Origin: Octopus sinensis
Taxonomy: Eukaryota
Direction of reading: 5' to 3'
Length of the DNA stretch: 64,000 nt
Assembly (NCBI RefSeq): GCF_006345805.1
Contig: NW_021832404.1
Coordinates: 22,667-86,666, forward strand
Below, one piece after another: positions 113 to 61,144 of this stretch. How positions within the stretch are numbered: the first letter of the stretch is position 1; each line of letters starts with the position of its first letter. The translations under genes and the position numbers were made by a program. A model generated the notes under the pieces. The model did not search any database. It saw only the letters and a program-made list of their open reading frames with translations, and was not told the origin of the DNA.

Positions 113-116
113 CTTT

Positions 117-512: not shown

Positions 513-542
513 CTGGTGTCTCTGTCGGCACCTCTGATCTCT

Positions 543-1104: not shown

Positions 1105-1148
1105 ATCGGCACCGTCTTTGATCTTTGTTGGCACACTCTTTGATCTCT

Positions 1149-1291: not shown

Positions 1292-1295
1292 CTTT

Positions 1296-1690: not shown

Positions 1691-1720
1691 CTGGTGTCTC
1701 TGTCGGCACCTCTGATCTCT

Positions 1721-36000: not shown

Positions 36001-39000
36001 GAACATTCAGAGAGGGGATTTGAAGGTGAAGGGGAGGAAGGAATATTGAACATTCCAGAGAGAGGGATTTGAAGGTGAAGGGGAGGAAGGGGAGGAAGGT
36101 ATTGAACATTCTAGAGAGGGGGATTTGAAGGTGAAGGGGAGGAAGGGGAGGAAGGAATATTGAACATTCCAGAGAGGTGGATTTGAAGGTGAAGGGGAGG
36201 AAGGGGAGAAAGGAATATTGAACATTACAAAGATGGGGATTTCAAGGTGAAGGGGAGGAAGGGATGGATGGAATATTGAACATTCCAGAGAGGGGGATTT
36301 GAAGGTGAAGGGGAGGAATGGGAGGAAGGAATATTGAACATTCCAGAGAGGGGGATTTTAACGTTAAGGGGAGGAATGGGAAGAAGGAATATTGAACATT
36401 CCAGAGAGAGGGATTTTAAGGTTAAGGGGAGGAATGGGAAGAAGGAATATTGAACATTCCAGAGAGGGGGATTTGGAGGTGAAAGGGAGGAATGGGAAGA
36501 AGGAATGTTGAACATTCCAGAGAGGGGGATTTGAAGGTGAAGGGGAGGAAGTTGAGGAAGAAATATTAAACATTCCAGAGAGGGGGATTTGAAGGTGAAG
36601 GTATGGAATGGGAAGAAGGAATAATGAACATTCCAGAGAGGGGGATATGAAGGTGAAGGGGAGGAAGGGGAGATAGGAATACTGAACATTACAAAGATGG
36701 GGATTTCAAGGTGAAGGGGAGGAAGGGGAGGATGGAATAATTAAGATTCCAGAAGAGGGGATTTAATGGTAAAGGGAGAATGGGAAAAAGGAATATTGAA
36801 CATTCCAGAGAGGGGGATTTGAAAGTAAATCGGAGGAATGGGAAGAAGGAATATTGAACATTCCAGAGAGGGGGATTTGAAGGTAAAGGGAGAATGGGAA
36901 GAAGGAATATTGAAAATTCCAGAGAGGGGGATGTGAAGGTAAATGGGATGAAATGGAAGAAGGAATATTTAACATTCCAGAGAGGGGGATTTGAAGGTGG
37001 AAGAGAGCAATGGGAAGAAGCATTATTGAAGATTCCAGAGATGGGGATTTGAAGGTGAAAGGGAGGAAGGGGAGAAAGGAATATTGAACATTTCAGAGAG
37101 GGGGATTTGAAGGTTAAGGGGAGAAATGGGAAGAAGGAATATTGAACATTCCAGAGATGGGATTTGAAGGTGAAGGTGAGGAAGGAGAGGAAGGGATACT
37201 GAACATTCCAGAGAGGGGATTTGAAGGTGAAGGGGGGAAGGGCAGGAAGGAATATTGAACATTCCAGAGAGGGGGATTTGAAGGTGAAGGGGAGGAAGTG
37301 GAGAAAGGAATACTGAACATTGCAGAGAGGGGGATTTGAAGGTAAATGGAGGAATGGGAAGAAGGAATATTTATCCTTCCAGAGAGGGGGATTTGAAGGT
37401 GAAGGTAAGGAATGGGAAAAAGGAATATTGAACATTACAGGGAGTGGGATTTCAAGGTAAAGGGGAGGAAAGGGAAGAAGAACATTGAACATTCCAGAGG
37501 GAGAGATTTCAAGGTAAAGGGGAGAATGTGAAGAAGGAATATTGAACATTCCAGAAGAGGGATTTAAAGGTAAGGGGAGGAATTGGAAAAGGAACATGAA
37601 CATTACATACTGAGAAGGGGATTTGAAGGTAAAGGCGAGGAATGGGAAGAAGGAATATTGAACATTCCAGGAGGAGGATTTGAAGGTAAATGGGAGGAAT
37701 GGGAAGAAGGAATATTGAACATTCCAGGAGAGGATTTGAAGTGAAGAAGGAAGGGAAGAAGGATATTGAACATTACTGAGAGGGGATTTGAAGGTAAAGG
37801 GGAGGAATGGGAAGAAGGAATATAGAACATTCCAGAGAGGGGGATTTGAAGGTAAAGGAAAGAATGGGAAGAAGTAATATTGAACATTCCATAAGGGGGA
37901 TTTGAAGGTGAAGGGGAGGAATGGGAAGAAGGAATATTGAACATTCCAGAGAGGGAGATTTGAAGGGAAAGGGGAGGAATGGGAAGAAGGAATATTAAAC
38001 ATTCCAGAGAGGGGGATTTGAAGGTGAAGGCTAGGAAGGGGAGGAAGGAACATTGAACATTGCAGAGAGTGGGATTTGAAGATGAAGGGGAGGAAGGGGA
38101 GGAATGAATATTGAACATTGCAGAGAGGGGGATTTGAAGGTGAAGGGGAGGAATGGGAAGAAGGAATATTCAACATTCGAGAGAGTAGTATGTGAAGGTA
38201 AAGGGGAAGAATGGGAAGAAGGAATATTGAACATTACAGAGAGGGGGATTTGAAGGTGAAGGAGAGGAAGAGGAGGAAGGAATATTGAACATTCAAGAGA
38301 GGGGGATTTGAAGGTGAAGGGGAGGAAGGAATATTGAACATTCCAGAGAGAGGGATTTGAAGGTGAAGGGGAGGAAGGGGAGGAAGGTATATTGAACATT
38401 CTAGAGAGGGGGATTTGAAGGTGAAGGGGAGGAAGGGGAGGAAGGAATATTGAACATTCCAGAGAGGTGGATTTGAAGGTGAAGGGGAGGAAGGGGAGAA
38501 AGGAATATTGAACATTACAAAGATGGGGATTTCAAGGTGAAGGGGAGGAAGGGATGGATGAATATTGAACATTCCAGAGAGGGGGATTTGAAGGTGAAGG
38601 GGAGGAATGGAGGAAGGAATATTGAACATTCCAGAGAGGGGATTTTAACGTTAAGGGGAGGAATGGGAAGAAGGAATATTGAACATTCCAGAGAGAGGAT
38701 TTTAAGGTTAAGGGGAGGAATGGGAAGAAGGAATATTGAACATTCCAGAGAGGGGATTGGAGGTGAAAGGGAGGAATGGAAGAAGGAATGTTGAACATTC
38801 CAGAGAGGGGGATTTGAAGGTGAAGGGGAGGAAGTTGAGGAAGAAATATTAAACATTCCAGAGAGGGGGATTTGAAGGTGAAGGTATGGAAGGGAAGAAG
38901 GAATAATGAACATTCCAGAGAGGGGGATATGAAGGAAGGGGAGGAAGGGGAGATAGGAATACTGAACATTACAAAGATGGGGATTTCAAGGTGAAGGGGA

Positions 39001-42000
39001 GGAAGGGGAGGATGGAATAATGAAGATTCCAGAGAGGGGGATTTAATGGTAAAGGGGAGGAATGGGAAGAAGGAATATTGAACATTCCAGAGAGGGGGAT
39101 TTGAAAGTAAATCGGAGGAATGGGAAGAAGGAATATTGAACATTCCAGAGAGGGGGATTTGAAGGTAAAGGGGAGGAATGGGAAGAAGGAATATTGAAAA
39201 TTCCAGAGAGGGGGATGTGAAGGTAAATGGGATGAATGGGAAGAAGGAATATTTAACATTCCAGAGAGGGGGATTTGAAGGTGAAAGAGAGCAATGGGAA
39301 GAAGCAATATTGAAGATTCCAGAGATGGGGATTTGAAGGTGAAAGGGAGGAAGGGGAGAAATGAATATTGAACATTTCAGAGAGGGGGATTTGAAGGTTA
39401 AGGGGAGAAATGGGAAGAAGGAATATTGAACATTCCAGAGATGGGATTTGAAGGTGAAGGTGAGGAAGGAGAGGAAGGGATACTGAACATTCCAGAGAGG
39501 GGGATTTGAAGGTGAAGGGGAGGAAGGGCAGGAAGGAATATTGAACATTCCAGAGAGGGGGATTTGAAGGTGAAGGGGAGGAAGTGGAGAAAGGAATACT
39601 GAACATTGCAGAGAGGGGGATTTGAAGGTAAATGGAGGAATGGGAAGAAGGAATATTTATCCTTCCAGAGAGGGGGATTTGAAGGTGAAGGTAAGGAATG
39701 GGAAAAAGGAATATTGAACATTACAGGGAGTGGGATTTCAAGGTAAAGGGGAGGAATGGGAAGAAGGAACATTGAACATTCCAGAGGGAGAGATTTCAAG
39801 GTAAAGGGGAAGAATGTGAAGAAGGAATATTGAACATTCCAGAGAGAGGGATTTAAAGGTAAAGGGGAGGAATTGGAAGAAGGAACATTGAACATTACTG
39901 AGAAGGGGATTTGAAGGTAAAGGCGAGGAATGGGAAGAAGGAATATTGAACATTCCAGGGAGGAGGATTTGAAGGTAAATGGGAGGAATGGGAAGAAGGA
40001 ATATTGAACATTCCAGGGAGGAGGATTTGAAGATGAAGGTAAGGAATGGGAAGAAGGAATATTGAACATTACTGAGAAGGGGATTTGAAGGTAAAGGGGA
40101 GGAATGGGAAGAAGGAATATAGAACATTCCAGAGAGGGGGATTTGAAGGTAAAGGAAAGAATGGGAAGAAGTAATATTGAACATTCCATAAGGGGGATTT
40201 GAAGGTGAAGGGAGGAATGGGAAGAAGGAATATTGAACATTCCAGAGAGGGAGATTTGAAGGGAAAGGGGAGGAATGGGAAGAAAGAATATTGAACATTC
40301 CAAGGAGGGGGGATTTAAAGGTAAAGGGGAAGAATGGGAAGAAGGATTATTGAACATTCCAGAGAGGGGGATTTGAAGGTAAACGTAAAGAATGGGAACA
40401 AGAAATATTGAACGTTCCAAAGAGTGGGATTTGAAGCTGAATGGGTGGAATGGGAAGAAGGAATATTGAACATTCCATACAGTGGGATTTGAAGGTGAAG
40501 GGGAGGAATAGGAGGAATGAATATTGAACATTCCATAGAGGGTGATGTGAAGGTGAAGGGGAGGAATGTGACGAAGGAATATTGAACATTCCAGAGAGGG
40601 GGATTTGAAGGTAAAGGTGAGGAAGGAGAGGAAGGAATATTGAACATTCCAGAGAGGGGGATTTGAAGGTGAAGGGGAGGAAAAGGAGGAAGGAATATTG
40701 AACATTCCAGAGAGGGGGATTTGAAGATGAAGGGGAGGAAGGGGAGGAAGTAATATTGAACATTCCAGAGAAAGGGATATGAAGGTAAAGGGGAGGAAGG
40801 GGAGGAAGGAATATTGAACATTCCAGAGTGGGGGATTTGAATGTGAAGGGGAGGAAGGGGAGAAAGGAATACTGAACATTCCAGAGAGGGGGATTTGAAG
40901 GTGAAGGGGAGGAAGTGGAGAAAAAAATACTGAACATTCCAGAGAAAGGGATATGAAGGTAAAGAGGAGGAAGGGGAGGAAGGAATATTGAACATTCCAG
41001 AGTGGGGGATTTGAAGGTGAAGGGGAGGAAGGGGAGAAAGGAATACTGAACATTCCAGAGAGGGGGATATGAAGGTGAAGGGGAGGAATGGGAAGAAGGA
41101 ATATTGAACATTCCAGAGTGGGGGATTTGAAGGTGAAGGGGAGGAAGTGGAGAAAAAAATACTGAACATTCTAGAGACGGGGATTTCAAGGTGAAGGGGA
41201 GGAGGGGAGGAAGGAATATTGAACATTCCAGAGAGGGGGATTTGAAGGTAAAGTGAGGAAGGAGAGGAAGGAATATTGAACATTCCAGAGAGGGGATTTG
41301 AAGGTGAAGGGGAGGAAAAAAGGAGAGGAATATTGAACATTCCAGAGAGGGGGATTTGAAGATGAAGGGGAGGAAGGGGAGGAAGTAATATTGAACATTC
41401 CAGAGAAAGGGATATGAAGGTAAAGGGGAGGAAGGGGAGGAGGAATATTGAACATTCCAGAGAGGGGGATTTGAATGTGAGGGGAGGAAGGGGAGAAAGG
41501 AATATGAACATTCCAGAGAGGGGGATTTGAAGTGAAGGGGGGAAGTGGAAAAAAATACTGAACATTCCAGAGAAAGGGATATGAAGGTAAAGAGGAGAAG
41601 GGGAGGAAGGATATTGAACATTCCAGAGTGGGGGATTTGAAGGTGGGGAGGAAGGGGAGAAAGGAATACTGAACATTCCAGAGAGGGGGATATGAAGGTG
41701 AAGGGGAGGAATGGGAAGAAGGAATATTGAACATTCCAGAGTGGGGGATTTGAAGGTGAAGGGGAGGAAGTGGAGAAAAAAATACTGAACATTCTGAGAC
41801 GGGGATTTCAAGGTGAAGGGGGGAGGGTAGGAAGGAATATTGAACATTCCAGAGAGGGGGATTTGAAGGTGAAGGGGAGGAATGGAGGAAGGAATATTGA
41901 ACATTCCAGAGAGGGGGATTTTAAGGTGAAGGGGAGGAATGGGAAGAAGGAATATTGAACATTCCAGAGAGAGGGATTTGAGGTAAAGGGAGGAATGGGA

Positions 42001-45000
42001 AGAAGGAATATTGAACATTCCAGAGAAGGGGATTTGAAGGTGAAGGTAAGGAATGGGAAGAAGGAATATTGAACATTCCAGAGAGGGGGATTTGGAGGTG
42101 AAAGGGAGGAATGTAAGAAGGAATATTGAACATTCCAGAGAGGTGGATTTGAAGGTGAAGGGGAGGAAGTGGAGGAAGAATATTGAACATTCCAGAGTGG
42201 GGGATTTGAAGGTGAAGGTATGGAATGGGAAGAAGGAATATTGAACATCCAGAGAGGGGGATTTGAAGGTGAAGTTAGGAATGGAAGAAGGATATTGAAC
42301 ATTGCAGAGAGGGGATTTGATGGTAAAGGGGAGGAATGGGAAGAAGGAATATTGAACATACCAGAGAGTGTGATTTGACGATAAAGGGGAGGAATGGGAA
42401 GAAGGAATATTCAACATTCCACAGAGGGGGATGTGAAGTTAAAGGGGAGGAATGGGAAGAAGGAATATTGAACATTCCAGAGAGGGGGATTTGAAGGTGA
42501 AGGGGAGGAAGGAGAGAAAGGGATACTGAACATTCCAGAGAGGGGGATTTGAATGTAAAAGGAATGAAGGGGATGAAGGAATATTGAACATTACAGAGAG
42601 GGGGATTTGAAGGTGAAGGAGGAAGGGGAGGAAGGATATTGAACATTCCAGAGAGGGATTTTGAAAGTGAAAGGGAGGAAGTGCAGAAAGGAATACTGAA
42701 CATTGCAGAGAGGGGGATTTGAAGGTAAATGGAGGAATGGGAAGAAGGAATATTTATCCTTCCAGAGAGGGGGATTTGAAGGTGAAGGTAAGGAATGGGA
42801 AGAAGGAATATTGAACATTCCAGAGAGAGAGATTTCAAGGTAAAGGGGAGGAATGGGAAGAAGGAATATTGAACATTCCAGAGAGGGGGATTTAAAGGTA
42901 AAGGGGAGGAATGGGAAGAAGGAACATTGAACATTACAGAGAAGGGGATTTGAAGGTAAAGGGGAGGAATGGGAAGAAGGAATATTGAACATTCCAGGGA
43001 GGAGGATTTGAAGGTGAAGGTAAGGAATTGGAAGAAGGAATATTGAACATTACAGAGAAGGGGAATTGAAGGTAAAGGGGAGGAATGGGAAGAAGGAATA
43101 TTGAACATTCCAGAGAGGGCGATTTGAAGGTAAAGGTGAGGAATAGGAAGTGGGAATATTGAACATTCCAGAGAGGGGGATTTGAGGATGAAGTGGAAGA
43201 AGAGGAGGAAGGAATATTGAACATTTCAGAGAGGGGGGTTTGAAGATGAAGGGGAGGAAGGGGAGGAAGGAATATTGAACATTCAAGAGAGGGGTATTTG
43301 AAGGTGAAGGGGAGGAAAAGGAGGAAGGAATATTGAACATTCCAGAGAGGGGGATTTGAAGATGAAGGGGAGGAAGGGGAGGAAGGAATATTGAACATTC
43401 CAGAGAGGGGGAGTTGAAGTTGAAGGGGAGGAAGGGGACAAAGGAATACTGAACATTCCAGAGAGGGGGATTTGAAGGTGAAGGGGAGGAAGGAATATTG
43501 AACATTCCAGAGAGGGGGATTTGAAGATGAAGGAGAGGAAGTGTAGGAAGGAATACTGAACATTCCAGAGAAGGGAATTTGAAGGTGAAGGGGAGGAAAA
43601 GGAGGAAGGAATATTGAACATTCCAGAGAGGATGATTTTAAGGTGAAGGGGAGGAATGGGAAGAAGGAATATTGAACATTCCAGAGAGGGGGATTTGAAG
43701 GTGAAGGGGAGGAATGGGATGAAGGAATATTGAACATTCCAGAGAGGGGGAATTTAAGGTGAAGGGGAGGAATCTGAAAACGGAATTTTGAACATTCCAG
43801 AGAGGGGGAATTTAAAGGTAATGTAAGGAATGGGAAGAAGGAATATTGAACATTCCAGAGAGGGGGGATTTAAGGTAAGGTAAGAAAATGGTGAAGGTAA
43901 GGAATGGTGAAGGTGAAGGTAAGGAATATTGAACATTCCAGAGAAGGGATTTGGAGGTGAAGGGGAGGAATGTGAAGAAGGATATTGAACATTCCAAGAG
44001 GGGGGATTTGAAAGTAAGGGGCGGAAAGGGAAGAAGGAATATTGAACATTCCAGAGAGGGGGATTAGAAGGTGAAAGAGAGCAATGGGAAGAAGCAATAT
44101 TGAACATTCCAGAGAGAGGGATTAGAAGGTTAAAGGGAGGAAGGGGAGAAAGTAATATTGAACATTCCAGAGAGGACGATTTGAAGGTAAAGGGGAGGAA
44201 TGGGAAGAAGGAATATTAAACATTCCAGAGAGGGGGATTTGAAGTTAAAGGGGAGGAATGGGAAGAAGGAATATTGAACATTCCAGAGAGGGGGATTTGA
44301 AGGTGAAGGGGAGGAAGAGGAGGAAGAAATATTGAACATTGCTGAGAGGAGGTATTTGAAGGTGAAGGAGAGGAAGTGGAGGAAGAGATACTGAACATTC
44401 CAGAGAGGGGGATTTGAAGGTGAAATGGAGGTAGGGGAGGAATGAATATTGAACATTCCATAGAGTGGAATTTGAAGGTGAAGGGGAGGAAGGGGAGGAA
44501 GGAATATTTAACTTTCCAGACAAGGGGAATCTAAGGTAAAGGGAGGAATGGGAAGAAGGAATATTTAACATTCCAGAGATTGTGGATTTGAAGGTGAAGG
44601 GGAGAAATATTGAACATTCCAGAGAGGGGGATTGAAGGTGAAGGGGAGGAAGGGAGGAAGGAATTTTGAACATTCCAGAGAGGGGGATTTGAAGTTGAAG
44701 GGGAGGAATAAGAAGGAATATTGAACATTCCAGAGAGGGGGGGTTGAAGGTAAGGGGAGGAATGGGAGAAGGAATATTGAACATTCCTGAGAGGGTGATT
44801 TGAAAGCGAAGGGGAGGAAGGGGTGGAAGGAATATTCAACATTCCAGTGAGTGGGGATTTGAAGGTGAAGGGGGGAAGGAATATTGACCATTCCAGAGAG
44901 GGGGATTTGAAGGTGAAGGGGAGGAAGGGGGGAAGGAATATTAAACATTCCAGAGAGGGGGATTTGAAGGTGCAGGGGAAGAAGTGGAGAAAGGAATACT

Positions 45001-48000
45001 GAACATTCCAGAGAGGGGGATTTGAAGGTAAAGGGGAGGAATGGGGAGGAGGAATATTTAACCTTCCAGAGAGTGGGATTTGAAGGTGAAGGTAAGGAAT
45101 GGGAAAAGGAATATTGAACATTCCAGTTAGGGGATTTGAAGGTAAAGGGGAGGAATGGGAGAAGGAATATTGATTATTCCAGAGATCGGGATAGAAAGGT
45201 AAAGGGAATGGGTTAAAGGAATATTGAACATTCCAGAGAGGGGATTTGAAGGTGAATTGGATGAATGGGAAGAAGGAATATTGAACATTCCAGAGAGGGG
45301 GATTTGAAGGTGATGGGGAGGAAAAGGAGGAAGGAATATTGAACATTTCAGAGGGGGATTTGAAGGTGAATTGGAGGTAGGGGAGGAAGGAATATTGAAC
45401 ATTCCAGAGAGCGGGATTTGAAGGTGACGGGGAGGAAGGAATATTGAACATTCCAGAGAGGGGCATTTGAAGGTGAAGGGTGGAAAGGGAGGAAGGGATA
45501 TTGAACATTCCAGAGAGAGGGATTTGAAGGTAAGGGGAGGAATGGAAAAACAATCTTGAACATACCAGAGGGGGGGATTTAAAGGTGAAGGGGAGGAAGG
45601 GTAGGGAGGAATTTGAACATTCCAGAGAGGGGGATTTGAAGGTGAAGGGGGAAGGAATATTGAACATTCCAGAGAGGGGGATTTGAAGGTGAAGGAGAGG
45701 AAGGCTAGGAAGGAATATTGAAAATTCCAGAGGGGGGGATTTGAAGTTGAAGGGGAGGAATGGGATGAAGGAATATTCAACATTCCAGAGAGTGGGATTT
45801 GTAGCTAATGGGGAGGAATGGGTAGAAGGAATATTGAACATTCCAGAGGGGGGGATTTTAAGGTGAAGGGAAGGAATGGGAAGAAGGAATATTGAACATT
45901 CCAGAAAGGGGGATTTGAAGGTAAAGTGGAGGAATGGGATGAAGGAATATTGAACATTCCAGAGTGGGGGATTTGAAGGTGAAGGGGAGGAATGGGAAGA
46001 AGGAATATTGATCATTCCAGAGAGGGGGATTTGAAGGTAAAGGTAAGGAATGGGAAGAAGGAATATTGAACATTCCAGAGAGGGGGATGTGAAGGTGAAT
46101 GTAAGGAATGGTGAAGTAAGGAATGGTGAAGGTGAAGGTAAGAATATGGAACATTCCAGAGAGAGGGATTTGGAGGTGAAGGGAGGTATGGAAGAAGGAA
46201 TATTGAACATTCCAGAGAGGTGGATTTGAATATAAAGGGGCGGAATGGGAAGAAGGAATATTGAACAATCCAGAGAGGGGGATTTGAAGGTGAAAGAGAG
46301 CAATGGGAAGAAGCAATATTGAACATTCCAGAGAGGGGGATTAGAAGGTTAAAGGGAGGAAGGGGAGGAAGGAATATTGAACATTCCAGAGAGGAGGATT
46401 TGAAGGTAAAGGGGAGGAATGGGAAGAATGAATGTTGAACATTCCAGAGAGGGGGATTTGAAGTTGAAGGGGAGGAATAAGAAGGAATATTGAACATTCC
46501 AGAGAGGGGGATTTGAAGGTGAAGGGGAGGAATGGGAGGAAGGAATATTGAACATTCCAGAGAGGGGGATTATAAGGTGAAGGGGAGGAATGGGAAGAAG
46601 GAATATTGAACATTCCAGAGAGAGGGATTTGAAGGTAAAGGGGAGGAATGGGAAGAAGGAATATTGAACATTCCAGAGAAGGGGATTTGAAGGTGAAGGT
46701 AAGGAATGGGAAGAAGGAATATTGAACATTCCAGAGAGGGGGATTTGGAGGTGAAAGGGAGGAATGTGAAGAAGGAATATTGAACATTCCAGAGAGGTGG
46801 ATTTGAAGGTGAAGGGGAGGAAGTGGAGGAAGAAATATTGAACATTCCAGAGTGGGGGATTTGAAGGTGAAGGTATGGAATGGGAAGAAGGAATATTGAA
46901 CATCCAGAGAGGGGGATTTGAAGGTGAAGTTAAGGAATGGGAAGAAGGAATATTGAACATTGCAGAGAGGGGGATTTGATGGTAAAGGGGAGGAATGGGA
47001 AGAAGGAATATTGAACATACCAGAGAGTGTGATTTGACGGTAAAGGGGAGGAATGGGAAGAAGGAATATTCAACATTCCACAGAGGGGGATGTGAAGTTA
47101 AAGGGGAGGAATGGGAAGAAGAATATTGAACATTCCAGAGAGGGGATTTGAAGGTGAAGGGGAGGAAGGAGAGAAAGGGATACTGAACATTCATTCCAGA
47201 GAGGGGATTTGAATGTAAAGGAATGAAGGGATTAAGGAATATTGAACATTACAGAGAGGGGGATTTGAAGGTGAAGGGGAGGAAGGGGAGGAAGGAATAT
47301 TGAACATTCCAGAGAGGGGGATTTGAAAGTGAAAGGGAGGAAGTGCAGAAAGGAATACTGAACATTGCAGAGAGGGGGATTTGAAGGTAAATGGAGGAAT
47401 GGGAAGAAGGAATATTTATCCTTCCAGAGAGGGGGATTTGAAGGTGAAGGTAAGGAATGGGAAGAAGGAATATTGAACATTCCAGAGAGAGAGATTTCAA
47501 GGTAAAGGGGAGGAATGGGAAGAAGGAATATTGAACATTCCAGAGAGGGGGATTTAAAGGTAAAGGGGAGGAATGGGAAGAAGGAATATTAAACATTCCA
47601 GGGAGGAGGATTTGAAGGTGAAGGTAAGGAATTGGAAGAAGGAATATTGAACATTACAGAGAAGGGGAATTGAAGGTAAAGGGGAGGAATGGGAAGAAGG
47701 AATAGTGAACATTCCAGAGAGGGCGATTTGAAGGTAAAGGTGAGGAATAGGAAGTGGGAATATTGAACATTCCAGAGAGTGGGATTTGAGGATGAAGTGG
47801 AAGAAGAGGAGGAAGGAATATTGAACATTTCAGAGAGGGGGGTTTGAAGATGAAGGGGAGGAAGGGGAGGAAGGAATATTGAACATTCAAGAGAGGGGTA
47901 TTTGAAGGTGAAGGGGAGGAAAAGGAGGAAGGAATATTGAACATTCCAGAGAGGGGGATTTGAAGATGAATGGGAGGAAGGGGAGGAAGGAATATTGAAC

Positions 48001-51000
48001 ATTCCAGAGAGGGGGGTTGAAGTTGAAGGGGAGGAAGGGGACAAGGAATACTGAACATTCCAGAGAGGGGATTTGAAGGTGAAGGGAGGAAGGAATATTG
48101 AACATTCCAGAGAGGGGATTTGAAGATGAAGGAGAGGAATGTAGGAAGGAATACTGAACATTCCAGAGAAGGGAATTTGAAGGTGAAGGGGAGGAAAAGG
48201 AGGAAGGAATATTGAACATTCCAGAGAGGATGATTTTAAGGTGAAGGGGAGGAATGGGAAGAAGGAATATTGAACATTCCAGAGAGGGGGATTTGAAGGT
48301 GAAGGGGAGGAATGGGATGAAGGAATATTGAACATTCCAGAGAGGGGGAATTTAAGGTGAAGGGGAGGAATCTGAAAACGGAATTTTGAACATTCCAGAG
48401 AGGGGAATTTAAAGGTAAATGTAAGGAATGGGAAGAAGGAATATTGAACATTCCAGAGAGGGGGATTTTAAGGTAAGGTAAGAAATGGTGAAGGTAAGGA
48501 ATGGTGAAGGTGAAGGTAAGGAATATTGAACATTCCAGAGAAAGGGATTTGGAGGTGAAGGGGAGGAATGTGAAGAAGGAATATTGAACATTCCAGAGAG
48601 GGGGATTTGAAAGTAAAGGGGCGGAAAGGGGAAGAATAATATTGAACATTCCAGAGAGGGGGATTAGAAGGTGAAAGAGAGCAATGGGAAGAAGCATATT
48701 GAACATTCCAGAGAGAGGGATTAGAAGGTTAAAGGGGAGGAAGGGGAGAAAGTAATATTGAACATTCCAGAGAGGACGATTTGAAGGTAAAGGGGAGGAA
48801 TGGGAAGAAGGAATATTAACCATTCCAGAGAGGGGGATTTGAAGTTAAAGGGGAGGAATGGGAAGAAGGAATATTGAACATTCCAGAGAGGGGGATTTGA
48901 AGGTGAAGGGGAGGAAGAGGAGGAAGAAATATTGAACTTGCTGAGAGAGGTATTTGAAGGTGAAGGAGAGGAAGTGGAGGAAGAGATACTGAACATTCCA
49001 GAGAGGGGGATTTGAAGGTGAAATGGAGGTAGGGGAGGAATGAATATTGAACATTCCATAGAGTGGAATTTGAAGGTGAAGGGGAGGAATGGGAAGAAGG
49101 AATATTTAACATTCCAGAGATTGTGGATTTGAAGGTGAAGGGGGAAGAAATATTGAACATTCCAGAGAGGGGGATGTGAAGGTGAAGGGGAGGAAGGGGA
49201 GGAAGGAATTTTGAACATTCCAGAGAGGGGGATTTGAAGTTGAAGGGGAGGAATAAGAAGGAATATTGAACATTCCAGAGAGGGGGATTTGAAGGTAAAG
49301 GGGAGGAATGGGAAGAAGGAATATTGAACATTCCTGAGAGGGTGATTTGAAAGCGAAGGGGAGGAAGGGGTGGAAGGAATATTCAACATTCCAGAGAGTG
49401 GGGATTTGAAGGTGAAGGGGGGAATGAATATTGACCATTCCAGAGAGGGGGATTTGAAGGTGAAGGGGTGGAAGGGGGGGAAGGAATATTAAACATTCCA
49501 GAGAGGGGGATTTGAAGGTGAAGGGGAAGAAGTGGAGAAAGGAATACTGAACATTCCAGAGAGGGGGATTTGAAGGTAAAGGGGAGGAATGGGGAGGAGG
49601 AATATTTAACCTTCCAGAGAGTGGGATTTGAAGGTGAAGGTAAGGAATGGGAAAAAGGAATATTGAACATTCCAGTTAGGGGGATTTGAAGGTAAAGGGG
49701 AGGAATGGGAAGAAGGAATATTGATTATTCCAGAGATCGGGATAGAAAGGTAAAGGGGAGGAATGGGTTAAAGTAAAGAATATTGAACATTCCAGAGAGG
49801 GGGATTTGAAGGTGATTGGATGAATGGGAAGAAGGAATATTGAACATTCCAGAGAGGGGGATTTGAAGGTGATGGGAGGAAAGGAGAAGGAATATTGAAC
49901 ATTTCAGAGAGGGGGATTTGAAGGTGAATTGGAGGTAGGGGAGGAAGGAATATTGAACATTCCAGAGAGCGGGATTTGAAGGTGACGGGGAGGAAGGAAT
50001 ATTGAACATTCCAGAGAGGGGCATTTGAAGTGAAGGGTGAAAGGGAGGAAGGATATTGAACATTCCAGAGAGGGGGATTTGAAGGTAAAGGGGAGGAATG
50101 GGAAAAACAATCTTGAACATACCAGAGAGGGGGATTTAAAGGTGAAGGGGAGGAAGGGTAGGGAGGAATATTGAACATTCCAGAGAGGGGGGGTTTACGG
50201 TGACGGGGAGGAAGGGGGCGGGGGAATATTGAACATTCCAGAGAGGGGGATTTGAAGGTGAAGGGGGAAGGAATATTGAACATTCCAGAGAGGGGGATTT
50301 GAAGGTGAAGGAGAGGAAGGCTAGGAAGGAATATTGAAAATTCCAGAGGGGGGGATTTGAAGTTGAAGGGGAGGAATGGGATGAAGGAATATTCAACATT
50401 CCAGAGAGTGGGATTTGTAGCTAATGGGGAGGAATGGGTAGAAGGAATATTGAACATTCCAGAGGGGGGGATTTTAAGGTGAAGGGGAGGAATGGGAAGA
50501 AGGAATATTGAACATTCCAGAGAGGGGGATTTGAAGGTAAAGGGGAGGAATGGGATGAAGGAATATTGAACATTCCAGAGTGGGGATTTGAAGGTGAAGG
50601 GGAGGAATGGGAAGAAGGAATATTGATCATTCCAGAGAGGGGGATTTGAAGGTAAAGGTAAGGAATGGGAAGAAGGAATATTGAACATTCCAGAGAGGGG
50701 GATGTGAAGGTGAATGTAAGGAATGGTGAAGGTAAGGAATGGTGAAGGTGAAGGTAAAGAATATGGAACATTCCAGAGAGAGGGATTTGGAGGTGAAGGG
50801 GAGGTATGGGAAGAAGGAATATTGAACATTCCAGAGAGGTGGATTTGAATATAAAGGGGCGGAATGGGAAGAAGGAATATTGAACAATCCAGAGAGGGGG
50901 ATTTGAAGGTGAAAGAGAGCAATGGGAAGAAGCAATATTGAACATTCCAGAGAGGGGGATTAGAAGGTTAAAGGGAGGAAGGGGAGGAAGGAATATTGAA

Positions 51001-54000
51001 CATTCCAGAGAGGAGGATTTGAAGGTAAAGGGGAGGAATGGGAAGAATGAATGTTGAACATTCCAGAGAGGGGATTTGAAGTTGAAGGGGAGGAATAAGA
51101 AGGAATATTGAACATTCCAGAGAGGGGGATTTGAAGGTAAAGGGGAGGAATGGAAGAAGGAATATTGAACATTCCAGAGAGGGGATTTGAAAGCGAAGGG
51201 GAGGAAGGGGTGGAAGGAATATTCAACATTCCAGAGAGTGGGGATTTGAAGGTGAAGGGGGGAATGAATATTGACCATTCCAGAGAGGGGATTTGAAGGT
51301 GAAGGGGAGGAAGGGGGGGAAGGAATATTAAACATTCCAGAGAGGGGGATTTGAAGGTGAAGGGGAAGAAGTGGAGAAAGGAATACTGAACATTCCAGAG
51401 AGGGGGATTTGAAGGTAAAAAGGAGGAATGGGGAGAAGGAATATTTAACCTTCCAGGTAGGGGGATTTGAAGGTGAAGGTAAGGAATGGGAAAAAGGAAT
51501 ATTGAACATTCCAGGTAGGGGGATTTGAAGGTAAAGGGGAGGAATGGGAAGAAGGAATATTGATTATTCCAGAGATCGGGATAGAAAGGTAAAGGGGAGG
51601 AATGAGTTAAAGGAATATTGAACATTCCAGAGAGGAGGATTTGAAGGTGAATTGGATGAATGGGAAGAAGGAATATTGAACATTCCAGAGAGGGGGATTT
51701 GAAGGTGATGGGGAGGAAAAGGAGGAAGGAATATTGAACATTTCAGAGAGGGGGATTTGAAGGTGAATTGGAGGTAGGGGAGGAAGGAATATTGAACATT
51801 CCAGAGAGCGGGATTTGAAGGTGACGGGGAGGAAGGAATAATGAACATTCCAGAGAGGGGCATTTGAAGGTGAAGGGTGGAAAGGGAGGAAGGGATATTG
51901 AACATTCCAGAGAGGGGGATTTGAAGGTAAAGGGGAGGAATGGGAAAAACAATCTTGAACATACCAGAGGGGGGGATTTAAAGGTGAAGGGGAGGAAGGG
52001 TAGGGAGGAATATTGAACATTCCAGAGATTGGGATTTGAAGGTGAATGGGAGGAAGGGGAGGGAGGAATATTGAACATTCCAGGAGGGGGGTTTACGGTG
52101 AAGGGGAGGAAGGGGGCGGGGGAATATTGAACATTCCAGAGAGGGGATTTGAAGGTGAAGGGGGAAGGAATATATGAAACATTCCAGAGAGGGGGATTTG
52201 AAGGTGAAGGAGAGGAAGGCGTGGAAGGAATATTAAAATTCCAGAGGGGGGGATTTGAAGTTGAAGGGGAGAATGGATGAAGGAATATTCAACATTCCAG
52301 AGAGTGGGATTTGTAGCTAATGGGGAGGAATGGGTAGAAGGAATATTGAACATTCCAGAGGGGGGGGATTTTAGGTGAAGGGAAGGAATGTGAGAAGGAA
52401 TATTGAACATTCCAGAGAGGGGGATTTGAAGGTAAAGGGGAGGAATGGGATGAAGGAATATTGAACATTCCAGAGAGGGGGATTTTAAGGTGAAGGGGAG
52501 GAATGGTGAAGGTAAGGAATGGTGAAGGTGAAGGTAAGGAATATGGAACATTCCAGAGAGAGGGATTTGGAGGTGAAGGGGAGGTATGGGAAGAAGGAAT
52601 ATTGAACATTCCAGAGAGGTGGATTTGAAGGTAAATGGGCGGAATGGGAAGAAGGAATATTGAACATTCCAGAGAGGGGGATTTGAAGGTGAAAGAGAGC
52701 AATGGGAAGAATCAATATTGAACATTCCAGAGAGGGGGATTAGAAGGTTAAAGGGAGGAAGGGGAGGAAGGAATATTGAACATTCCAGAGAGGAGGATTT
52801 GAAGGTAAAGGGGAGGAATGGGAAGAAGGAATATTGAACATTCCTGAAAGGGGGATTTGAAGGTAATGGGGAGGAATGGGAAGAAGCAATATTGAACATT
52901 CCAGAGAGGGGGATTTGAAGGTGAAGGGGAGGAAGGGGAAGAAGGAATATTGAACATTCCAGAGAGTGGGATTTAAAGGTGAGGTGGAGGAATGGGAAGA
53001 AGGAATATTGAAAATTCCCGAGGGGGGGATTTGAAGGTGAAGGTGGGGAATGTGAAGAAGGAATATTGAACATTCCATAGAGGGGGATTTGAAGGTGAAA
53101 GGAGGAATGGGAAGAAGGAATATTGAACATTCCAAAGAGTGGGATTTGAAGTTGAATGGGTGGATTGGGAAGAAGGAATATTGAACATTCCAGAGAGGGG
53201 GATTTGAAGGTGAAGGTAAGGAATGGCGAAGGTAAGGAATGGTGAAGGTGAAGGTAAGGAATATTGAACATTCCAGAGAGAGGGATTTGGAGGTTAAGGG
53301 GAGGTATGGGAAGAAGGAATATTGAACATTCCAGAGAGGGGGATTTGAAGGTAAAGGGGCGGAATGGGAAGAAGGAATATTGAACATTCCAGAGAGGGGG
53401 ATTTGAAGGTGAATTGGATGAATGGGAAGAAGGAATATTGAACATTCCAGAGAGGGGGATTTGAAGGTGAATTGGAGGTAGGGGAGGAAGGAATATTGAA
53501 CATTCCAGAGAGCGGGATTTGAAGGTTACGGGGAGAAGGAATATTGAACATTCCAGAGAGGGGCATTTGAAGGTGAAGGGTGGAAAGGGAGGAAGGGATA
53601 TTGAACATTCCAGAGAGGGGGATTTGAAGGTAAAGGGGAGGAATGGGAAAAACATCTTGAACATACCAGAGGGGGGGATTTAAAGGTGAAGGGATGAAGG
53701 TAGGGAGGAATATTGAACATTCCAGAGATTGGGATTTGAAGGTGAATGGGAGGAAGGGGAGGGAGGAATATTGAACATTCAGAGAGGGGGGTTTACGGTG
53801 AAGGGGAGGAAGGGGGCGGGGAAATATTGAACATTCCAGAGAGGGGATTTGAAGGTGAAGGGGGAAGGAATATTGAACATTCCAGAGAGGGGGATTTGAA
53901 GGTGAAGGAGAGGAAGGCGAGGAAGGAATATTGAAAATTCCAGAGGGGGGGATTTTTGAAGTTGAAGGGGAGGAATGGGATGAAGGATATTCAACATTCC

Positions 54001-55840
54001 AGAGAGTGGATTTGTAGCTAATGGGGAGGAATGGGTAGAAGGAATTTTGAACATTCCAGAGGGGGGGGATTTTACGGTGAAGGGTGGAAGGGGAAGAAGG
54101 AATATTGAACATTCCAGAGAGGGGGTTTGAAGGTAAAGGGGAGGAATGGGATGAAGGAATATTGAACATTCCAGAGAGGGGGGATTTTAAGGTGAAGGGG
54201 AGGAATGGAATAAGGAATATTGAACATTCCAGAGAGGGGGATTTGAAGGTAAGGTAAGGAAGGGAAGAAGGAATATTGAACATTCCAGAGAGGGGGATTT
54301 GAAGGTGAAGTAAGGAATGGTGAAGGTAAGGAATGGTGAAGGTGAAGGTAAGGATATGGAACATTCCAGAGAGAGGGATTTGGAGGTGAAGGGGAGGTTG
54401 GGAAGAAGGATTATTGAACATTCCAGAGAGGTGGATTTGAAGGTAAAGGGGCGGATGGAAGAAGGAATATTGAACATTCCAGAGTGGGGGTTTGAAGGTG
54501 AAAGAGAGCAATGGGAAGAAGCAATATTGAACATTACAGAGAGGGGGATTAGAAGGTTAAAGGGAGGAAGGGGAGGAAGGAATATTGAACATTCCAGAGA
54601 GGAGGATTTGAAGGTAAAGGGGAGGAATGGGAAGAAGGAATATTGTACATTCCTGAGAGGGGGATTTGAAGGTAATGGGGAGGAATGGGAAGAAGGAATA
54701 TTGAACATTCCAGAGAGGGGGATTTGAAGGTGAAGGGGAGGAAGGGGAAGAAGGAATATTGTACATTCCAGAGAGTGGGATTTAAAGGTGAGGTGGAGGA
54801 ATGTGAAGAAGGAATATTGAAAATTCCAGAGGGGGGGATTTGAAGGTGAAGGTGGGGAATGTGAAGAAGGAATATTGAACATTCCATAGAGGGGGATTTG
54901 AAGGTGAAAAGGAGGAATGGGAAGAAGGAATATTGAACATTCCAAAGAGTGGGATTTGAAGTTGAATGGGTGGAATGGGAAGAAGGAATATTGAACATTC
55001 CAGAGAGGGGGAATTGAAGGTGAAGGTAAGGAATGGTGAAGGTGAAGGTAAGGAATATTGAACATTCCAGAGAGAGGGATTTGGAGGTGAAGGGGAGGTA
55101 TGCGAAGAAGGAATATTGAACATTCCAGAGAGGGGGATTTGAAGGTAAAGGGGCGGAATGGGAAGAAGGAATATTGAACATTCCAGAGAGGGGGATTTGA
55201 AGGTGAAAGAGAGCGATGGGAAGAAGCAATATTGAACATTCCAGAGAGGGGGATTAGAAGGTTAAAGGGAGGAAGGGGAGGAAGGAATATTGAACATTCC
55301 AGAGAGGAGGATTTGAAGGTAAAGGGGAGGAATGGGAAGAAGGAATATTGAACATTCCAGAGAGGGGGATTTGAAGGTGAAGGGGAGGAAGGGGAAGAAG
55401 GAATATTGAACATTCCAGAGAGTGGGATTTAAAGGTGAGGTGGAGGAATGTGAAGAAGGAATATTGAAAATTCCAGAGGGGGGGATTTGAAGGTGAAGGT
55501 GGGGAATGTGAAGAAGGAATATTGAACATTCCATAGAGGGAGATTTGAAGGTGAAAAGGAGGAATGGGAAGAAGGAATATTGAACATTCCAAAGAGTGGG
55601 ATTTGAAGTTGAATGGGTGGAATGGAAGAAGGAATATTGAACATTCCATACAGTGGGATTTGAAGGTGAAGGGGAGGAATAGGAAGAATGAATATTGAAC
55701 ATTCCATAGAGGGGGATTTGAAGGTGAAGGGGAAGAATGGGACGAAGGAATATTGAACATTAAATAGAGTTTGGATTTGAAGGTGAAGGGGAGGAATGGG
55801 AATAAGGAATATTGAACTTTCCAGAGAGGGAGATTTGGAG
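3029..55840 (+). repeat. 58-bp satellite array, about 900 units; consensus GAATATTGAACATTCCAGAGAGGGGGATTTGAAGGTRAAGGGGAGGAATGGGAAGAAG
   Basis: Unit counted as 58 nt; repeat-derived ORF starts recur at 58-bp steps (e.g. 17657, 17599); single orientation throughout; 45 of 58 consensus bases are purines on the + strand. Confidence 0.98.
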
Positions 55841-55842
55841 AT

Positions 55843-56460: not shown

Positions 56461-56541
56461 GTTCAGACATGCTCAAACCAGTTAAAACCGGTTCAAACTG
56501 GTTCAAAATGTTCAAACCGGTTGAAACCGGAACAAACCAGT

Positions 56542-56602
56542 TCAAACACTTTCATCAAACACTTTCATCAAACATTTTTCATCAGACATTTTCATCAAAC
56601 AT
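56542..56602 (+). repeat. 13-bp tandem array (AACAYTTTCATCA)n, block 1
   Basis: aaacactttcatc / aacatttttcatc / gacattttcatc units. Confidence 0.9.
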
Positions 56603-56750
56603 TAAACCGGTTCAAACCGGCTCAAACCGGATCAACCACATCAAACAAGTTCAAACCGGATCTAACCAATTCAAAACGGTTCAAACTGGTTCAAACCGGT
56701 TCAAACCGGTTCGAACCGGTTCAAACCGGTTCAAACCGGATCAAACCAGT

Positions 56751-56880
56751 TCAAACACTTTCATGAAACGTTTTTCATTAGACATTTTCATCAAACATTT
56801 TTCATCAGACATTTTCATCAGACATTTTCATCAAAAATTTTCATCAAACATTTTCATCAAACATTTTCATCAGACATTTT
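56751..56880 (+). repeat. 13-bp tandem array (RACATTTTCATCA)n, block 2, about 10 units
   Basis: Direct reading of units. Confidence 0.92.
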
Positions 56881-57032
56881 GATCCTGTTTGAACCGGTTT
56901 TATTCGATTTGTACCGGTTTGGTCCGGTTTAAACCGTATCAAACCAGTTCAAATTGGTTCAAACCGGTTCAAACCGGATCAAACCAGTTCAAACCGGTTC
57001 AAACTGGTTCAAACCGGTTCAAACTGGTTCAA

Positions 57033-57156
57033 ATCTATAAATAGTATCTATAAATAGAATCTATAAATAGAATCTATAAGTAGAATCTATAAATAGTATC
57101 TATAAATAGAATCTATAAATAGAATCTATAAATAAATAAATAAATAAATAAATAAA
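57033..57156 (+). repeat. 13-bp (TCTATAAATAGAA)n followed by (AAAT)n
   Basis: Direct reading of units. Confidence 0.93.
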
Positions 57157-57345
57157 ATATATATGCAAATTATAAATAGGCAATTATGTATATATATATG
57201 CAAATTATGTATATATATATATATGCAAATTATGTATATATATATGCAAATTATGTATATATATATGAAAATTATGTATATAAATATATGCAAATTATGT
57301 ATATATATATGTAAATTATGTATATATATATGCAAATTATGCATA
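57157..57345 (+). repeat. ~21-25-bp array (TA)n-TGCAAATTATG containing ATGCAAAT
   Basis: Six perfect ATGCAAAT (57163, 57198, 57223, 57244, 57288, 57330) plus ATGAAAAT and ATGTAAAT variants, separated by variable (TA)n. Confidence 0.9.
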
Positions 57346-58530
57346 TAGAATCTATAAATAGAATCTATCAATAGAATCTATAAATAGAATCTATAAATAG
57401 AATAAATAAATAAATAAATAAATAAATAGTATCTATAAATAGAATCTATAAATAGAATCTATAAATAGAATCTACAAATAGAATCTATAAATAGAATCTA
57501 TAAATAGAATCTATAAATAGAATCTATAAATAAATAAATAAATAAATAAATACAATCTATAAATAGAATCTATAAATAAATAAATAAATAAATAAATAAA
57601 TACTATCTATAAAAATAATCTATAAATAGAATCTATAAATAGAATCTATAAATAGAATCTATAAATAAATAAATAAATAAATAGAATCTATAAATAGAAT
57701 CTATAAATAGAATAAATAAATAAATAAATAAATAAATAGAATCTATAAATAGAATCTATAAATAGAATCTATAAATAGAATCTATAACTAGAATCTATAA
57801 ATAGAATCTATAAATAGAATCTATAAATAGAATCTATAAATAAATAAATAAATAAATGAATAAATAAATACATAAATAAATAAATAGAATCTATAAATAG
57901 AATCTATAAATAGAATCTATAAATAGAATCTATAAATAAATAAATAAATAAATGAATAAATAAATACATAAATAAATAAATAGAATCTATAAATAGAATC
58001 TATAAATAGAATCTATAAATAGAATAAATAAATAAATAAATAAATAGAATCTATAAATAGAATCTGTAAATAGAATCTATAAATAGAATCTATAAATAAA
58101 TACATAAATAAATAAATAGAATCTATAAATAGAATCTATAAATAAATAAATAAATAAATGAATAAATAAATACAGAAATAAATAAATAGAATCTATAAAT
58201 AGAATCTATAAATAGAATCTATAAATAGAATCTATAAATAAATAAATAAATAAATGAATAAATAAATACATAAATAAATAAATAGAATCTATAAATAGAA
58301 TCTATAAATAGAATAAATAAATAAATAAATAAATAAATAAATAGAATCTATAAATAGAATCTATAAATAGAATCTATAAATAGAATTTATAAATAGAATC
58401 TATAAATAAATACATAAATAAATAAATAGAATCTATAAATAGAATCTATTAATAGAATCTATAAATAAATAAAAATAAATAAATATATAGTATCTATAAA
58501 TAGAATCTATAAATAGTATCTATAAATAGA
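57346..58530 (+). repeat. Compound array of 13-bp TCTATAAATAGAA blocks alternating with (AAAT)n
   Basis: Direct reading; recurring higher-order block marked by aaatgaataaataaatacataaat. Confidence 0.95.
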
Positions 58531-58696
58531 TGTCAGGAATGTCAGGAATGTCTGGAATGTCAGGAATGTCAGGATTACCGGAATATCTGGAATGTCAGTA
58601 ATATCTGGAATGTCTGGAATGTCTGGAATGTCAGGAATGTCTGGAATGTCTGGAATGTCTGGAATGTCAAGAATGTTTGGAATGTGAGGAATGTCA
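58530..58696 (-). repeat. 9-bp array in inverted orientation (WGGAATGTC)n
   Basis: Reverse complement of the left-flank 9-bp array, including the cacatt..aaacattcttgac variant next to the junction. Confidence 0.95.
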
Positions 58697-60535
58697 GAGA
58701 TCAGAGGTGCCGACAGAGACACCATCTTTGATCATTTTCGGTACTCCTCTTTGATCTCTGTCGGCCCTTCTTTGATCCCTGTCGGCCCTTCTTTGATCTC
58801 TTTCGGCACCCTCTTTCATCTCTGTCGGCACATTCTCTGATCTCTTTCGGTAGTCCTCTTTGATCTCTTTCGGTACCTTCTTTGATCTCTGTCGGTACCC
58901 TCTTTGATCTCTTTCGGTACTCCTGTTTGATCCATTTCGGTACTCCTCTTTGATCACTTTCGGTACCTTCTTTGATCTCTGTGGGCACCCTCTTTGATCT
59001 CTGTCGGCACCTTCTTTGATCTCTGTCGGTACTCCTCTTTGATCTCTGTCGGCACCCTGTTTGATCTCTGTCGGTACCCTCTTTGATCTTTTTCGGTACT
59101 CCTCTTTGATCTCTGTCGGCAACCTCTTTGATCTCTGTCGGCACCCTCTTTGATCTCTTTCGGCACCCTCTTTGATATCTGTCGGCACCCTTTTTGATCT
59201 CTTTCGACACCCTTTTTGATCTCTGTAGGTCCTTCTTTGATCTCTTTCGGCACCCTCTTTGATCTCTGATAGAAAGAGATCAAAGAGGGTGCCGACAGAG
59301 ACCAAAGAGGAGTACCGAAAAATATATCTTTCGGTACTCCTCTTTCATCTCTGTCAGCACTATCTTTGATCTTTTTCGGTACTGCTCTTTGATCTCTGTC
59401 GGCACCCTCTTTGATCTTTTTCGGTACTCCTCTTTGATCTCTGTCGGCCCTTCTTTGATATCTTTCGGCACCCTCTTTGATCTCTGTCGGCACCCTCTTT
59501 GATATCTGTCGGCACCTTCTTCGATCTTTTTCGGTACTCCTCTTTCATCTCTTTCGGCACCCTCTTTGATCTATGTCGTCACACTCATTGATCTTTTTCG
59601 GTACTCCTCTTTGGTCTCTGTCGGCAACCTCTTTGATCTTTGTCGGCACCCTCTTTGATCTCTTTCGGCATCCTCTTTGATCCCTTTAGGTGCTCCTCTT
59701 TGATCTCTGTCGGCACCTTCTTTGATCTCTTTAGGTTCTCCTCTTTGATCTCTGTCGGTACTCCTCTTTGATCTATGTCGGCACTCTCTTTGATCTCTTT
59801 CGGTACTCCTCTTTGATCTCTGTCTGCACCCTCTTTGATCTCTTTCGATACTCCTCTTTGATCTCTGTCGGCACCCTGTTTGATCTCTTCCGACACTCTC
59901 TTTGATATCTCTCGGCACCCTCTTTGATCTCTGTTTGTCCCCTTTTTGATGTCTTTCGACTCCCTTTTTGTTCTCTGTCGGCACCCTCTTTGATGTCTTT
60001 CGACACCCTCTTTGATCTCTTTCGGCACCCTCTTTGATCTCTGTCGGTACTACCTTTGATCTCTTTAGGCACCCTCTTTGATGTCTGTCGGCACTCTCTT
60101 TGATATCTTTCGGGACTCTTCTCTGATCTCTTTCGGCACAATTTTTTATCTCTTTCGGCACCCTATTTGATCTCTTTCGGTGCCCTATTTCATCTCTGTC
60201 GGGACCCTTTTTGATCTCTTTCGGCACCCTCTTTGATCTTTTTCGGCACCCTCTTTTATCTCGGTCGGCACCCACTTTGATCTCTTTCGGTACTCCTCTT
60301 TGATATCTGTCGGCACCCTCTTTGATCTCTGTCGGCACCCTCTCTGATCTCTTTCGGCACCCTCTTTTATGTCTTTCTGTACTCCTCTTTGACCTCTTTC
60401 GGTACGCTCTTTGATGTCTGTCGGCACCCTTTTTGATCTCTTTCGGCACCCTGTTTAATGTCTTTCGGCGCACTCTTTGATCTCTTTCGGGACTCCTCAT
60501 TGATCTCTCTCGGGACTCTTTCATCTCTTTCGGCG
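58697..60535 (-). repeat. 22/24-bp array in inverted orientation (CTCTTTGATCTCTGTCGGCACC)n, about 80 units, with a micro-inversion at ~59272-59322
   Basis: Reverse complement of 117-512; units become more degenerate towards 60535. Confidence 0.95.
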
Positions 60536-61112
60536 TTTCATTCATTTCGTTTTCTAGCATATCACTCGCCTGCATGACGCTGGGTTTTCCGCTGCTCCGC
60601 TGCTGCATTAACTTTCGGGTAGTGCTCCATGATCTCTGGGCATCTGCAAACGAAACGTATTCCTCTTCCACAATTACCTCGTCGTCTTCACTTTCCACCG
60701 GCTCTTCGTTTTGCCTTACCTCCTTTGCTATTTCTTCTAGAGTGAAACATGTTGGACAATACAAGTGGCGGTAACTTGTATCAGATATTACTAATGATAC
60801 GAGGGGCCCGACAATAACATTTTTCGCAGCATCGATAATCTCCTTCTTTTCCTTCAGCGTAAACTCAGTTCGCTTGCGTTTCTGAGCTGACACTGTGCTA
60901 CTTTCTGAACTTTTCAGATACGAAATGTACAAAATGTAGGAGTACAAAATTTCGAAAAGTTGCTTGCGCTAATTTTACAAGTGGCATAGTAGCGTGAGTT
61001 GAGGGTGGCATAGTAAAATATTTTTGTTTATTATTTGGCCGGGATCGCGCAAAACTGGCATTGTAGTGAGAGTGGCATAGTAGCGAGGTAGCATAGTAGC
61101 GAGAGTTCACTG
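60536..61112 (-). mobile_element. Left end of a pogo/Tigger-like (Tc1/mariner superfamily) DNA transposon, internally deleted
   Basis: Minus strand reads TA|CAGTGAACTCTCGCTACTATGC from 61114/61112, i.e. a TA target plus a CAGT-type TIR. About five subterminal GCATAGTAG-like direct repeats lie at 60981-61103, followed by a transposase-like remnant. Family assigned from recalled features, not a database search. Confidence 0.75.
60538..60881 (-). pseudogene. Deleted Tigger/CENP-B-like transposase remnant (N-terminal HTH start joined to the acidic C-terminal tail; no DDE domain)
   Basis: KRKRTEFTLKEKKEIIDAAKN (60881-60819) resembles the CENP-B-type HTH N-terminus of pogo/TIGD proteins. TLEEIAKEVRQNEEPVESEDDEVIVEEEYVSFADAQRSW resembles their acidic C-terminal region. 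Only ~20 codons separate the two, so the catalytic core is missing. Confidence 0.7.

Positions 61113-61144
<32 letters not shown>

Follow-up and report, generated by a model that had tools for sequence, protein, structure and literature searches.

The window analysed here, a stretch of 64,000 nucleotides from Octopus sinensis, is a patchwork of tandem arrays with units of 9, 10, 13 (two kinds), 21 and 22 bp, to which is added a 53-kb satellite with units of 58 bp (Table 1). Tandem repeats occupy positions 1-60535, and the open reading frames found between 58500 and 64000 are either read-throughs of repeats or parts of the remnant of a pogo-like transposon. No gene was seen within the 64-kb window, and no Rfam match was obtained at 55800-64000. 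On the minus strand, ~62240-62420 corresponds to what we take to be a common Octopus SINE-like repeat. The 58-bp satellite displays a strong G/A skew and recurring sub-blocks, which make it a candidate for a major or centromeric octopus satellite. Its unit contains ACATTCCA plus TTTGAAG, a sequence resembling the TCF core.

Table 1. Repeats and transposon-derived features of the window, with positions counted from its first nucleotide.
Feature	Position	Strand	Basis or further occurrences
22/23-bp minisatellite, ~80 units	58720..60535	+	TRF and unit parse
Putative local inversion, ~2 units inside the 22-bp array	59269..59321	-	minus-strand units at 59285 and 59307
Junction of the 9-bp and 22-bp arrays	58698..58725	+	found inverted in both left copies too
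9-bp array, TEAD-like ACATTCC, 14 matches	58530..58697	-	
Inverted copy of the start of the 22-bp array	116..540	-	
Second inverted copy of the start of the 22-bp array	1295..1718	-	
Two-unit remnant of the 22-bp family with a different spacer, between 10-bp and 9-bp arrays	1105..1146	+	again at 2266-2307 and 2744-2785
58-bp satellite of ~900 units with 650 plus-strand TEAD-like matches	3029..55837	+	
10-bp arrays (Grainyhead-like AACCGGTT or TTTGATCCGG variant) mixed with 13-bp array	56462..57033	.	also 904-1104, 2084-2265, 2602-2743
13-bp array, MEF2-like CTATAAATAG and ATAA runs	57032..58530	+	also 55838-56212
21-bp array, octamer ATGCAAAT, 6 matches	57157..57347	+	
Internally deleted pogo/Tigger-like DNA transposon remnant, high-copy family	60536..61112	-	homologues
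Sole terminal repeat of the pogo element in the window, beside TA	61091..61112	-	
Subterminal repeats of the pogo element (four, 12 bp each), differing from the 22-bp unit	60983..61101	+	
Microhomology of ~13 nt; the array stands here in place of the pogo element's last codons and far end	60522..60535	+	

A preliminary description of this DNA had drawn attention to a 22-bp tandem array, in which each unit would be a bipartite binding element for TCF. The array itself is real. TRF calls it at 58720-60534, with 82.0 copies and 78% matches, and a parse of the individual repeats gives 80 units, mostly of 22-23 bp: 53 of 22 bp, 20 of 23 bp, four of 21 bp, one of 20 bp, one interval of 62 bp, and the last unit. 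The 62-bp interval contains the inverted patch, which may have arisen by local template switching; one degenerate unit beside it was dropped, and motif counts are given over the remaining 79 units. Local flips of orientation are also observed at 56751-57033, between blocks of the 13-bp and 10-bp repeats. Within a unit of the 22-bp array, an 11-bp HMG-like site is followed by a 7-bp reversed Helper-like site and by a spacer of 4-5 bp. Long open reading frames cross the array, and they were rejected as genes, since the minus strand of the consensus unit is free of stop codons. One such stop-free frame, of 465 codons (59571-60968, minus strand), joins the pogo remnant to the repeat and is probably an artefact.

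The DNA helix makes one turn every 10.5 bp, and the period of the array had been equated with two such turns. Averaged over the 77 regular intervals, the period is 22.2 bp, that is, about 1.2 bp (~40 degrees) beyond two turns at each unit, so that the TCF-like sites drift out of phase along the array. With such a period, and with mixed unit lengths, helical phasing was rejected as support for a TCF reading.

The module made of the 22-bp and 9-bp arrays recurs in inverted orientation at the left of the window, at 116-696 and 1295-1874, with 88.9% and 88.7% identity to the right-hand module over 611 nt. Both left copies sit inside a 1179-bp tandem duplication (95% identical), in an internal position; the left end of a putative foldback element would fall outside the window.

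How good is the match of the unit to a TCF site? According to Hoverter et al., the WRE is defined as CTTTGWWS, and RCCG is too frequent for meaningful searches (PMC4267635). The core CTTTGATS is present in 46 of the 79 units, and CTTTGATCT is found exactly in 39/79. Over the whole window, CTTTGWWS has 86 matches for 21.9 expected from shuffles, which ignore repetition. The longer consensus SCTTTGATS, quoted in the preliminary description, occurs in just one of 79 units because the base that precedes the core is T. The perfect 11-bp HMG site SCTTTGWWSWW was found in none of the 79 units, and with one mismatch in nine. On the Helper side, the triplet CGG is present in 63 of 79 units and CGG(C/T), i.e., RCCG, in 59. 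No unit (0/79) has a perfect Helper, either GCCGCCR or RCCGCC. The six-out-of-seven match GCCGACA does exist, but in 22 of 79 units only, and it accompanies CTTTGATS in 16. Thus, the juxtaposition of an HMG site and of a Helper look-alike stands, whereas the match is weaker than had been claimed, with most units offering only the 4-bp RCCG. Once the HMG site is given, a Helper matching at six of seven positions appears by chance in 0.7% of draws with flank composition, 2.4% with uniform composition and 9.6% with shuffling, and RCCG in 5-35%.

The layout of the unit suits TCF better than had been noticed. The fly scheme pairs an HMG site of 11 bp with a Helper of 7 bp, and among the arrangements of the two sites AK6 and FF0 bind best, KK0 being intermediate (PMC4154663). 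Furthermore, AK and KK pairs are active in fly assays, and a Helper anywhere in the vicinity is of help (Archbold et al., 2014, PMC4154663). Each HMG-like site of the array stands in the KK0 arrangement to one neighbouring Helper-like site; to the next one, the arrangement is AK4 in 53, AK5 in 19 and AK3 in 4 of 79 units. The Helper-like sites are therefore both close to the HMG-like sites and in an active orientation (KK0, AK3-AK5), and AK4/AK5 are near the fly optimum AK6. The AK6 probe itself is composed of AAGATCAAAGG, 6 bp and GCCGCCA (PMC4154663), and the minus strand of the octopus unit reads alike. The array thus resembles the HMG-Helper pairs and AK-KK reporters of Drosophila (PMC4154663) in having a WRE core beside a GC-rich Helper-like site in KK0 and AK4/5 geometry. 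Unlike the fly pairs, most octopus units depart from the 11-mer consensus at two positions and from the Helper at one to three. Moreover, the fly enhancers contain one to three pairs (PMC4154663), whereas the putative octopus sites are present in ~80 tandem satellite copies. The C-clamp is stated for non-vertebrate TCFs in general (PMC4267635), with further background on this domain in PMC11601247 and PMC4963812; the literature covered yielded no paper on the octopus TCF. Methylation of the Helper CpG strongly cut binding in a preliminary human test (PMC4267635). Since the HMG/Helper layout fits the published fly scheme and the WRE definition, binding in vitro is plausible: we consider it likely that the 22-bp unit would bind TCF with the help of the C-clamp, if unmethylated and accessible.

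Conservation does not single out the HMG site. It was assessed on 72 regular units, which are not independent, so that the p-values given below are too small. CTTTGATCT had been presented as the most stable part of the unit; its mean mismatch is 0.068, the remaining columns having 0.080 (Fisher p=0.44), and this 9-mer ranks 13th by stability among the 22 nine-column windows. T columns vary little throughout the unit and C/G columns drift throughout. Mismatches at C/G columns amount to 32/216 in the HMG site and 36/288 elsewhere (p=0.51), and within the array's second half the HMG site has C/G columns that fare worse than the rest (23/108 vs 13/144, p=0.01). The conservation argument made for the HMG site therefore fails. 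The CGG columns are somewhat steadier, with 15/216 mismatches versus 36/288 for the other C/G columns (p=0.05, and p=0.07 when retested on 57 distinct units). The retention of the CpG, also put forward in the preliminary description, was confirmed: CpG transitions (2/144) occur less often than the remaining C>T/G>A changes (33/576; p=0.03). These signals are weak, because the units share ancestry and because several tests were made. Transposable elements are weakly methylated in octopus, satellites being relatively more so (Macchi et al., PMC9476566). Given the low methylation of octopus repeats, the lack of CpG decay needs no selection. Low methylation can account for this absence of decay, yet not for the deficit of change at the CpG.

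Other arrays of the window carry motifs of other transcription factors. ACATTCC is repeated 10-26 times per 9-bp block and 650 times in the 58-bp satellite, and a period of 9 bp may suit paired TEAD sites. Each 10-bp block has two to six AACCGGTT, and the 13-bp arrays taken together have 70 copies of the MEF2-like CTATAAATAG. The ATAA runs of the 13-bp array (57380-58489) give 135 matches to RTAAAYA in 57348-58530, which we take to be Forkhead-like and which are expected for such AT-rich repeats. The TEAD core was taken from PMC11526998, the Grainyhead motif from PMC5829564 and the octamer from PMC13043367. Overall, textbook transcription-factor motifs were recognized in five of the seven short unit types, with a chance per motif in a random unit of 0.0001-0.002 (flank composition) or 0.0008-0.007 (shuffle). 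The motifs were chosen by eye after the units had been viewed, and the look-elsewhere correction assumed libraries of 50-400 motifs; depending on the null and on the library size, the corrected chance of five motif-bearing units out of seven is about 1e-6 to 1. As this rough estimate is so broad, the richness in motifs is suggestive only. In the 9-, 13- and 22-bp units the most frequent variant lies outside the motif (joint chance 0.004, post hoc), and in the 10-bp unit it lies inside.

On its right side, the array runs into the pogo remnant, two pieces of which were recognized, an N-terminal HTH part (60819-60893) and a C-terminal part (60537-60764). A Pfam search with the 144-aa piece returned no significant family and three weak hits below the cut-off; the identity of the remnant rests on its homologues, since all nine hits are relatives; eight of these have DDE_1 and HTH_Tnp_Tc5 domains, and the hit from O. 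vulgaris shows 82% identity across 76 residues. High-depth contigs span the internal deletion point (60819-60822) and others diverge there, indicating that longer members of the pogo family exist. In four of four runs, contigs of this family start matching at 60536. The loose end of a contig from run X5 continues in frame as the last residues of the transposase, as seen in P0002, and shares ~13 nt, with one gap, with an array unit. Scored by hand, this match reaches 10, a value attained by 4/556 control 18-mers of the flank and 0/559 of the remnant. No contig bridging the junction was found among those listed. Because the family contigs begin at 60536 and because of the ~13-nt match, the junction appears guided by homology rather than being a transposon end; it may have arisen by template-switch repair or by deletion. 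The preliminary description had offered, as an alternative, that the units are subterminal repeats bound by a transposase. For the adjacent pogo element this does not hold, as its own subterminal 12-mers differ and as the family contigs stop short of the array. The C-terminal coding stretch of pogo contains GCCGAAA and GCCGACA 19 bp apart; an origin of the 22-bp unit from it is unlikely, the rest of the unit being mismatched.

Relatives of the array exist elsewhere in Octopus. Two predicted proteins of O. vulgaris, P0001 and P0011, are read-throughs of the 22-bp repeat at two other loci (records of 147.5 and 119 Mb). In P0001 the read-through includes the 10-bp module as well, and this protein was the only true relative among the five hits of a representative search, P0012-P0015 being unrelated low-complexity proteins. 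Annotation of the repeat as protein is probably a gene-model error in both cases. In one of them, the repeat makes up a ~245-residue N-terminus on a myo-inositol transporter, which puts an array close to that gene. When the three loci are compared via their protein read-throughs, the spacer varies and the GATCAAAG and CCGA parts are kept. At the P0011 locus, Gly follows four of 10 IK anchors, versus 1/65 in the window; as deduced from the protein, this would imply the full consensus base.

Part of 58500-61112 is found in 20 of 24 listed sequencing runs (10 studies, four organism labels), with a share under 0.2 in 16 of the 20; no RNA run figures among the listed ones that contain it. Contigs matching the unit have a very high summed depth, with the same consensus, in each of the four runs compared (four organism labels; X5 and X6, which belong to the group with a share under 0.2, are among them): 2,761-111,849, versus about 150-2,400 along the greater part of the pogo remnant, depth not being equivalent to copy number. 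Loose contig ends repeat the 22-bp unit, and the last units of the array continue elsewhere into more array. Pattern scans gave no locus in metagenome contigs and none in viral contigs.

Considering these data, we incline, if only somewhat, to view the 22-bp array as a module of a self-spreading, dispersed patchwork satellite, probably able to bind TCF, selection for this binding being unproven. The array would be one of several modules, with units of 9, 10, 13, 21, 22 and 58 bp, of a high-copy satellite of Octopus. Slippage and unequal exchange would make the arrays grow, as the 22/23-bp variants and the 1179-bp duplicated block may illustrate, and local template switching would flip their orientation. 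Modules would join other repeats at short homologies, here the pogo remnant at the ~13-nt match. That the window consists nearly entirely of tandem arrays shuffled in order and orientation argues for such a history, and comparable shuffled satellite loci have been described in oyster (PMC12628747). Some observations fit it less well: motifs in five of seven unit types are not predicted by neutral drift, the amplified variants of the 9-, 13- and 22-bp units fall outside the motif, fewer mutations hit the CpG than other C/G positions although octopus satellites are relatively more methylated than transposable elements, and the full consensus base would be more frequent at the P0011 locus.

According to a less probable, tentative reading, the patchwork would be a selected platform for transcription factors, its TCF+Helper, TEAD, Grainyhead, MEF2 and POU arrays recruiting host factors. 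The benefit could be that of the repeat itself, through open chromatin, transcription and amplification, or the platform could serve the host as a sink or hub; the Wnt-responsive array proposed in the preliminary description would be a special case. The motif counts per block, with a per-motif chance of 0.0001-0.007, point in this direction, as do the rarity of a 6/7 Helper beside a given HMG site (0.7-9.6% of draws), the proximity of AK4/AK5 to the AK6 optimum, the tendency of amplified variants to avoid the motifs, and the persistence of GATCAAAG and CCGA in proteins from three loci with changing spacers. A precedent is provided by human HSat3, bound by TEAD (PMC11526998). As in Human Satellite 3 (Franklin et al., PMC11526998), a tandem unit recreates the motif of a signalling factor many times, ACATTCC in the 9- and 58-bp arrays playing this part here. 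However, HSat3 is a megabase pentamer array with demonstrated binding (PMC11526998), whereas the octopus repeats form kilobase-scale blocks of different units, each with a candidate motif of its own. The case for selection is weakened by the corrected chance for five of seven units, which spans 2e-6 to 1, by the choice of the motifs after inspection of the units, by the partial relatedness of units through descent (9/58-bp; 10/13/22-bp), and by the near-palindromic form of two motifs, which repeats favour anyway. Moreover, the HMG site shows no excess conservation and no perfect copy, and the window no gene.

A third reading, somewhat more doubtful than the platform, sees in the arrays either the inverted-repeat modules of a foldback/Mutator-like element or arrays internal to a Helitron/Helentron, with units that a transposase binds or that are simply carried. 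The true end of the element would then have been lost in a deletion reaching into the pogo copy. In agreement with this, the 22-bp + 9-bp module is inverted on either side of the 58-bp satellite, and modules travel together to another locus (P0001). Foldback elements do possess inverted repeats of modular build, from which satellites can arise (PMC4079207), and mollusc Helentrons carry mixed arrays (PMC12628747). The locus resembles the foldback element Tetris, with inverted tandem-repeat modules around a variable middle (Dias et al., 2014, PMC4079207). It also resembles loci of Crassostrea gigas in which satellites and Helitrons are shuffled, several array types occurring in both orientations within truncated elements (PMC12628747). 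Unlike in Tetris, neither a flanking domain nor an 8-10-bp target duplication was seen (PMC4079207), and unlike in the C. gigas loci, no Helitron/Helentron end was identified at the octopus locus (PMC12628747). The right end, devoid of a terminal domain and of a target-site duplication, runs straight into pogo coding sequence through the microhomology join, and the last units continue elsewhere into more array on contigs. In addition, both left copies lie internally and within a duplication, inversions are seen inside arrays too, and neither P0001 nor P0011 is fused to a transposase. The satellite, platform and transposon readings overlap, and a repeat born from a transposon could later be shaped by binding.

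It may also be imagined, although we regard this as improbable, that the modules are homotypic arrays for signalling factors (a TCF+Helper array of the TOPflash/AK type beside TEAD, Grainyhead, MEF2 and POU arrays) amplified by binding itself and serving as Wnt/Hippo-responsive platforms, as sinks or as mobile enhancers. That the array is a true Wnt enhancer of some gene at this locus is very unlikely.

The patchwork-satellite family apparently represents an undescribed octopus repeat: within the literature covered, largely other than subscription papers, on octopus satellites, on TCF/Wnt with satellite DNA and on satellites with TEAD, no description of it was found. A satellite unit that recreates a factor motif is of a known kind (HSat3); new would be a patchwork of arrays with different motifs, including a bipartite TCF unit. 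Should TCF bind these arrays in vivo, they could, with thousands of sites, titrate TCF/beta-catenin or make nearby genes Wnt-sensitive. The array would then be a natural counterpart of the synthetic multimer reporters, something that has not been found in natural modules according to Archbold et al. (PMC4154663). Otherwise, the family still contaminates gene models, as P0001 and P0011 illustrate. Finally, a satellite with motifs for several factors would allow one to ask directly whether the binding of factors drives the amplification of satellites.
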